Shown: piece by piece, positions 1 through 697 of the stretch | Layout of the letters: the number at the start of each line of letters is the position of its first letter | Position numbering within the stretch: the first letter of the stretch is position 1 | Source: a virus | Taxonomy: Duplodnaviria; Heunggongvirae; Uroviricota; Caudoviricetes | Strand: one strand, 5' to 3' | DNA: 4,650 nucleotides | Virus record (IMG/VR): IMGVR_UViG_2698536571_000005 | Translations under genes and position numbers: made by a program | The notes under the pieces: model-generated | What the model was told of the DNA's origin: nothing | What the model saw: only the letters and a program-made list of their open reading frames with translations | Database searches by the model: none

Positions 1-103
1 GGGACGGAAGTCGCTGTCGTTCTCAAAATCGGTGGAGCTGCATGACAAAGTCATCGGGCATTATCTGAACATAAAACACTATCAATAAGTTGGAGTCATT
101 ACC
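1..103. repeat. Left arm of a perfect 103-bp inverted repeat; partner is 4548-4650
   Basis: Hand comparison: reverse complement of 4548-4650 matches 1-103 at every base; identity stops at 104 (t) versus 4547 (g). The arm contains the stop codon and last ~26 codons of the gp47-like ORF. Confidence 0.9.
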
Positions 104-697
104 TGCGCCCCCCTGTGGAATGTAGTAATAACGTTCCATAACGCGGGCACGCCATATTTCCAGATTTTCAATATCTTCACCGTCTGTAATGGTGTCAGCG
201 TACCCTGTGGACGGCAGACCACTGACGGGTGTTCCCAGTTGCATGGCAATACCATCATCCGTATTCCCCGCCGATCCCGGTTCGTCTGCCACAACAGGCA
301 CCCGGAGAAGACCATCGGCTGCGGTCACCGTCGCCGTCGTGGTAAAGGTCACCTGATTATCACGCTGGATCTGCGTTCCCGCTGGCAATACCGGCGTCCC
401 CTCTACGCCATCCCAGCGCACAAATCCCCGGGCTGCCACCGCTTCTTTTCGCGGGCAGCGTTTGATTCTGGCGTGCCGGTACAGCCAGTCTTCATCACAC
501 ACGTCCGGTAACAGATTTCTGGCAAGATAATCGATATACCCGTACAACGTGTGTACGGCTGCAGCCTGTACACGGGCATACACTTCCGCATCCATACGAC
601 GAAGCAGCGTATCCTGCTCAAAGCGGGTTAATAAATCGCTCCGGATCATAGAAATAAGTTGCGGGAGGCCGGGGCGATAAAACTGACTGTCAGCCAT
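23..697 (-). CDS. Baseplate J-like protein (Mu gp47/W-like, P2 gpJ-like), probably truncated or chimeric at the C-terminus
   Basis: 224-aa ORF. The stretch ARGFVRWDG...LPAGTQIQ...PVVADEPGSAGN...YYYIPQGGAGNDS resembles the baseplate J family as I recall it. ATG at 697-695 has GGAG 9 nt upstream and overlaps the stop of the upstream gene by 8 nt. The last ~26 residues (GNDSNLLIVFYVQIMPDDFVMQLHRF) are encoded by the inverted repeat and do not look like the family. Confidence 0.6.
   Translation of the reverse strand: MADSQFYRPGLPQLISMIRSDLLTRFEQDTLLRRMDAEVYARVQAAAVHTLYGYIDYLARNLLPDVCDEDWLYRHARIKRCPRKEAVAARGFVRWDGVEGTPVLPAGTQIQRDNQVTFTTTATVTAADGLLRVPVVADEPGSAGNTDDGIAMQLGTPVSGLPSTGYADTITDGEDIENLEIWRARVMERYYYIPQGGAGNDSNLLIVFYVQIMPDDFVMQLHRF

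Follow-up and report, generated by a model that had tools for sequence, protein, structure and literature searches.

A gp47-like baseplate gene split by IS1 in a defective Shigella sonnei prophage, seen through the collapsed ends of a short contig

The truncated gp47-like baseplate gene in this viral record is almost certainly (probability about 0.96) the outcome of one of two IS1 insertions into a defective Shigella sonnei prophage, viewed through collapsed contig ends. The window, by which we mean the whole stretch of DNA analysed, comprises 4650 bases and is the full length of its own source record. It represents a complete short-read contig of S. sonnei carrying the Mu gp43-gp47 baseplate segment of a defective phiP27-like prophage, into which two copies of IS1 transposed separately, oriented so that their IRR ends point towards one another. 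One copy split the gp47/Baseplate_J gene behind codon 198 of 360; the other split, behind codon 34 of 160, an AT-rich hypothetical gene located between gp43 and the tape-measure gene. At each site a target duplication of 9 bp arose, as is usual for IS1. When the broken gp47 gene is translated, the frame enters IS1 antisense to insB and continues for 26 codons to the first in-frame stop, yielding a 224-aa chimera. The assembler collapsed IS1, of which this genome has very many copies, as short-read assemblers do with such repeats, and the contig stops 103 nt into the element on both sides; equal stops in two inward-facing, collapsed copies leave a perfect terminal inverted repeat.

That repeat occupies positions 1-103 and 4548-4650, exactly both ends of the window, and its two arms of 103 nt are 100% complementary, a match far beyond chance. 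At least 5000 plasmid records contain an IS1 whose 3' end matches positions 1-103 at 100% identity, and comparison with R100 gave 103 of 103 identical bases, taking in the final 88 bases annotated as IS1B transposase and 15 bases past them. Translation of the plus strand over 2-88 gave GRKSLSFSKSVELHDKVIGHYLNIKHYQ followed by a stop, ending in ...HDKVIGHYLNIKHYQ and that stop, which is the 3' end of the insB transposase reading frame; the right terminal inverted repeat of IS1 lies within the same end, at about 81-103 (plus strand). The repeat is the last 103 bp of IS1, with the IRR end pointing inward at both window ends: the copy at 1-103 lies on the plus strand and the second, at 4548-4650, in inverted orientation on the minus strand (placed by the repeat match and the flanks in the S. 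sonnei locus L007), both being cut by the contig end. A complete IS1 is about 768 bp long, with IRL and IRR ends and the genes insA and insB, and its target duplication is a direct repeat, typically of 9 bp. At the gp47 site in L007 a complete IS1 spans 10595-11362 (768 bp), from GGTAATGACTCC... to ...GGCAGCATCACC, and full-length elements were found at the same sites across the S. sonnei loci, the window itself holding 103 bp per end. Genes of the complete copies matched Zn_ribbon_InsA, HTH_Tnp_IS1 and DDE_Tnp_IS1. Set beside IS1 as known from the 768-bp IS1B of R100, the elements share an identical IRR end, InsA and InsB domains and 9-bp target duplications; we found no difference, the window showing the terminal 103 bp of each copy since the contig stops there.

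The open reading frame at 23-697 (minus strand) encodes 224 aa, made up of 198 native residues and 26 repeat-encoded residues before the stop. The native part, at 104-697 (minus strand), corresponds to codons 1-198 of 360 of a gp47-like baseplate gene and is annotated here as a pseudogene fragment (PF04865; 99.2% nucleotide identity to Escherichia coli RMDEC465). It runs to ...YYYIPQGGA (residue 198), and divergence from the intact 360-aa homologue falls exactly at 103/104, bearing out the proposal of the initial annotation that the gene is cut at the repeat boundary. At the breakpoint the intact homologue reads ...PQGGADPDYVIWAKEV... and the window ...PQGGAGNDSNLL... (over a longer stretch, ...RYYYIPQGGADPDYVIWAKEV... 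and ...RYYYIPQGGAGNDSNLLIVF..., respectively). Beyond it, at 23-103 (minus strand), lie the 26 IS1-encoded codons (GNDSNLLIVFYVQIMPDDFVMQLHRF) and stop, antisense to the 3' end of insB, with the same read-through in S. sonnei genomes. The tail is indeed foreign, as had been suspected, although it is 26 rather than about 22 residues long, and the loss had been underestimated: the product is truncated, and 162 of 360 residues (45%) are absent from it, not a third.

By its Pfam score the product belongs to the Baseplate_J family (PF04865, 87.5 bits against a cut-off of 21.1), though the match covers residues 69-201 and profile positions 2-137 of 255, which is less than a full-length domain. Alignment to Mu gp47 (360 aa), which had been proposed together with the Baseplate_J profile as a check, reached Mu residues 6-196 only, at 29% identity, and so stopped at 196/360 as the profile match stopped at 137/255, while the intact E. 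coli homologue aligned over Mu residues 9-359. The gene is 1083 nt (360 aa) long in both E. coli RMDEC465 and FDAARGOS_944, and the closest intact copies of the Mu gp47 type are L52 of phiP27 and the E. coli prophage protein WP_000785589.1. The likeness to Mu gp47 and Baseplate_J thus extends over residues 1-198 and the gp43-gp48 gene order, with E. coli prophage genes at 99% nucleotide identity; the difference is that the window gene is split after codon 198 of 360, with 26 IS1-encoded residues in place of the C-terminal 162. An intact reading frame with start and stop, annotated as a protein in public records, is what one would expect if the 224-aa protein were a genuine short member of the gp47 family, ending in a C-terminus of its own. 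The chance of this is close to nil: its last 26 residues come from IS1, antisense to insB, the Pfam match ends at 137/255, the other 162 codons lie behind IS1 in restorable frame, and the homologues from Mu, phiP27 and E. coli are all 360 aa. The short form was rejected by the alignments to the intact homologue and Mu gp47; the end-to-end alignment of all 224 residues by which the initial annotation would have recognized such a form was not obtained, the last 26 residues aligning with no homologue. The 224-aa product is the product of a gene fragment and is probably not a functional Baseplate_J member, the split gp47 gene having most likely lost its function. A promoter scan around the IS1/gp47 junction returned nothing above shuffle expectation.

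Ten long S. sonnei contigs (L004-L013; nine of 4.8-5.0 Mb and one of 0.68 Mb, complete chromosomes included) were compared, one of which, HE616528.1, we take to be S. sonnei 53G. All ten carry a full 768-bp IS1 at the exact gp47 site with the 9-bp duplication GGGGGCGCA. In L007, GGGGGCGCA stands on either side of this IS1; in the window the inner copy lies at 104-112, reading TGCGCCCCC as presented and GGGGGCGCA on the gene strand, and the second copy lies beyond IS1 in L007. Under simple insertion the flank beyond the IRL end would be GGGGGCGCAGACCCTGATT, and the far-side sequence across the element reads GACCCTGATTATGTTATCTGGGCG. After the 224-aa reading frame, the ten loci continue with insB and insA of IS1 on the opposite strand, a Baseplate_J_C reading frame, the Mu gp48 gene (PF10076), tail-fibre genes and smpB. 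The remaining 162 gp47 codons, for which a search elsewhere in the genome had been proposed, sit directly behind the 768-bp IS1 and are followed by the gp48 gene in complete S. sonnei genomes as in the ten contigs as a whole. The fragment behind IS1 covers positions 136-255 of the 255-position Baseplate_J profile, and the intact gene covers 2-255. In silico removal of IS1 and one GGGGGCGCA produced an alignment of 204/204 gap-free columns, with 99.5% and 98.0% identity to the intact E. coli genes; excising the element and one duplicate would restore the 360-aa gene as found intact in E. coli prophages and phiP27. By these junctions, the gp47 break is a simple IS1 transposition with target duplication.

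Two other accounts of the break turn on the same loci. In the window strain, an IS1-mediated adjacent deletion or rearrangement might have removed or relocated the 3' part of gp47, as the contig ends inside IS1, leaving the far side outside the window, and IS1 copies do drive rearrangements in Shigella (PMC8072062). We regard this as very unlikely: every one of the ten long contigs with the identical junction shows a simple insertion, with matching 9-bp duplications in a colinear prophage. Nor is it credible, to any appreciable degree, that the junction is an assembly chimera present in no real genome. Contig ends in repeats are prone to misjoins and the symmetrical 103-nt ends are determined by the assembler, but the same junction recurs in independent assemblies of 4.8-5.0 Mb, with the 9-bp duplication on its far side. 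Megablast against complete E. coli genomes found 50 records covering 103-1132, none of which joins the gene to positions 1-102, and the exact IS1/gp47 junction (a 39-mer) had zero matches in a species-representative genome collection.

At the right end, the AT-rich DNA abutting the second repeat belongs to another interrupted gene. Positions 3900-4547 are 100% identical to E. coli FDAARGOS_944, where the AT-rich DNA continues as a 483-nt hypothetical gene (160 aa) that has the tape-measure gene on one side and the DNA circularisation gene on the other. This gene is interrupted in L007 by another complete IS1, with CGTTAAAAC on either side of the element; the inner copy of the duplication lies at 4539-4547 of the window, reading GTTTTAACG as presented and CGTTAAAAC on the gene strand, at the junctions seen in the S. 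sonnei loci. Removing the second IS1 in silico gave 222/222 identity to the intact gene. The window retains codons 35-160 and the stop at 4166-4547 (minus strand), as judged against the intact gene in FDAARGOS_944; the insertion cost the gene its start codon and first 34 codons, and its 5' end, beyond the second IS1, reads GTGATAAAGCCATTTTTAATGACGG. In the listed 131-aa reading frame at 4166-4561, the TTG start and five codons (MESLP) belong to IS1. The 160-aa protein was assigned to phrog_5586 in PHROGs (E = 9.7e-89), a family of unknown function, and a Pfam search with it returned no match. Its N-terminus, VIKPFLMTVAILTSCC, resembles a lipoprotein signal with a predicted LTSC lipobox. This extra gene (window 4120-4547; intact at 9267-9749 of L003) has a GC content of 37.6% and is missing from both phiP27 and E. 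coli RMDEC465. A terminator-like hairpin with a T-run lies just 3' of it at 4138-4160 (minus strand), and the arrangement is moron-like.

The contrast in composition between the two ends is real: positions 60-103 have 29.5% GC and positions 104-147 have 54.5%, compared with 38.6% over 4504-4547 beside the same 29.5% repeat end. It had been taken to mean that the left copy is the derived junction and, by implication, that the smooth transition on the right reflects the original context of the repeat. The left junction is derived, but the right one is equally so, having its own 9-bp duplication and cutting another gene; what had looked like original context is a second, independent IS1 insertion into an AT-rich gene. 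The composition break is the AT-rich end of IS1 set against a phage gene of 55% GC, and the smooth right transition reflects an AT-rich target. GC contrast carries no information on which junction is ancestral or derived.

With IS1 at both ends in inverted orientation, the layout formally recalls a composite transposon such as Tn1681, and the inverted pair with the 4.4 kb between could be thought to move as a unit or, as an invertible segment, to flip. IS1 composite transposons of the Tn9 or Tn1681 type have a single target duplication at their outer ends and place the unit in a foreign context. Here each IS1 has its own matching duplication, the two differ, and outside both copies the same prophage goes on in the order of IS1-free relatives; separate duplications and colinear flanks do not fit the Tn9/Tn1681 pattern. 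Phage invertible segments such as Mu G and P1 C are bounded by short inverted sites, adjoin a Gin/Cin-type invertase gene and occur in both orientations in populations. In the present case the arms are IS1 ends, there is no site-specific invertase gene among the called genes in or beside the segment, and 10/10 loci have the same orientation with unswapped duplications. A unit that moves or flips is therefore extremely unlikely. That the two IS1 copies arrived independently follows from their unlike duplications and from the colinearity of the outer flanks with IS1-free relatives; the segment is neither a composite transposon nor an inverted block. Equally slight is the prospect that the 4.4-kb segment inverts by homologous recombination or moves as an IS1 composite, or that the 224-aa fusion is expressed with a residual or dominant-negative role in tail particles; nothing that we observed supports inversion or transposition of the segment or a functional fusion.

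Double insertion also accounts for the form of the contig. In a pattern search all four IS1 junctions were found in 10/10 of the long S. sonnei loci, and the symmetrical 103-nt ends are an assembler stop in a multicopy repeat, not the biological terminal repeat of a 4.6-kb element. An exact look-up of the 224-aa protein found it in 226 blocks of an assembly collection, the longest carrying contig being 2-5 kb in 186 of them and above 1 Mb in 20; sibling partial proteins of 212-221 aa occur on contigs of 4500-4553 nt. The many carrier contigs of 2-5 kb, and siblings that stop at other depths in IS1, fit the collapse account. We infer that the window strain shares the full structure of the ten long contigs, extrapolating from genomes in which both the protein and the junctions are identical. 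A UniProt entry, Q3YYR0 from S. sonnei Ss046, already records exactly this 224-aa protein. Public records name the product of 23-697 "head assembly protein" or "baseplate J/gp47 family protein", with no mark of IS disruption, and this naming of a chimeric product is an annotation artefact.

The other genes of the window follow the Mu type of order, gp43-gp44-gp45-gp46-gp47-gp48, with gp48 (PF10076) found behind the 3' fragment in the S. sonnei loci. All are on the minus strand: a Mu gp46-like baseplate gene at 690-1100 (136 aa; PF07409 GP46, 113.6 bits), a Mu gp45-like baseplate assembly protein V gene at 1106-1665, broken by a run of Ns at 1133-1418 (homologue of 534 nt and 177 aa in complete genomes; PF06890), a Mu gp44 (P)-like baseplate hub gene at 1643-2731 (362 aa; Pfam GpP-like/Gp44-like domains) and a Mu gp43-like DNA circularisation protein gene at 2728-4119 (463 aa; PF07157, 124.2 bits). 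The N-run comprises 286 Ns, and the homologous stretch is 260 nt in RMDEC465 and FDAARGOS_944; with the gp45-like gene at 534 nt in the S. sonnei loci, the run is thus 26 nt too long and shifts the frame, which suggests a scaffold gap of estimated size, not a mask that keeps the original length. The listed 191-aa reading frame at 1090-1665 is artefactual, having been read across the Ns; the gene in fact stops at 1106-1108. The gp44-like gene contains an in-frame hexamer tandem repeat at 2161-2183 (CCAGCA; GCTGGT on the gene strand, Leu-Val), present four times in the window and in most S. sonnei loci, three times in L004 and twice in L007 (53G), L009, FDAARGOS_944 and phiP27. S. sonnei genomes differ in the copy number of this hexamer, a small variable-number repeat.

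Of the phages, the Stx2e phage phiP27 comes closest, with 96.5% nucleotide identity over window 104-4123 and the same genes in the same order; it differs in having an intact 1083-nt gp47-like gene and in lacking both IS1 copies and the AT-rich 160-aa gene. Among E. coli relatives, window 104-1132 is 99.2% identical to RMDEC465 and 96.7% to FDAARGOS_944, and window 1419-4547 is 99.5% identical to FDAARGOS_944 and 97.5% to RMDEC465, a mosaic relatedness that suggests recombination among related prophages. In E. coli relatives (L001, 1-1513; L003, 1-374) the gene ipaHe, encoding a type III secretion effector E3 ligase, adjoins the tail-fibre end of the prophage, and in most S. sonnei loci (about 16300-17150 in L004-L013) smpB adjoins it. 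Directly upstream of the tail sheath gene, the S. sonnei loci have an IS3-family transposase; in FDAARGOS_944 the tail genes are preceded by head-completion, connector and capsid genes. The S. sonnei prophage appears to have lost its head module, and the IS3-family element, set against the head genes of FDAARGOS_944, points to a decayed prophage.

For the reading of similar records, when a short contig begins and ends with the arms of a perfect inverted repeat, the usual cause is a collapsed multicopy IS. Reading frames that enter such ends gain spurious tails, as in the 224-aa "head assembly protein", or spurious starts, as in the 131-aa frame, and a GC contrast at an IS junction cannot show which side is ancestral. 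No other IS has as many insertion sites in Shigella as IS1, whose median share of the insertions detected across genomes is 42-59%, and 46-73% in reference genomes; gene loss in Shigella is due in part to IS expansion (PMC7373316). The present case resembles the IS-made Shigella pseudogenes described by Hawkey et al. (2020; PMC7373316) in being an IS1 insertion in an S. sonnei coding sequence common to many isolates, and differs in that a prophage remnant gene, not a metabolic gene, was hit. The feature is real and fully explained, and both the sequence and the phenomenon are already on record. The consequence of the split prophage gene for the host is probably nil: it is one of the many ordinary IS1-made pseudogenes of S. 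sonnei, lies in a remnant prophage, can be found already in the reference genomes of Ss046 and 53G, and carries little biological weight.
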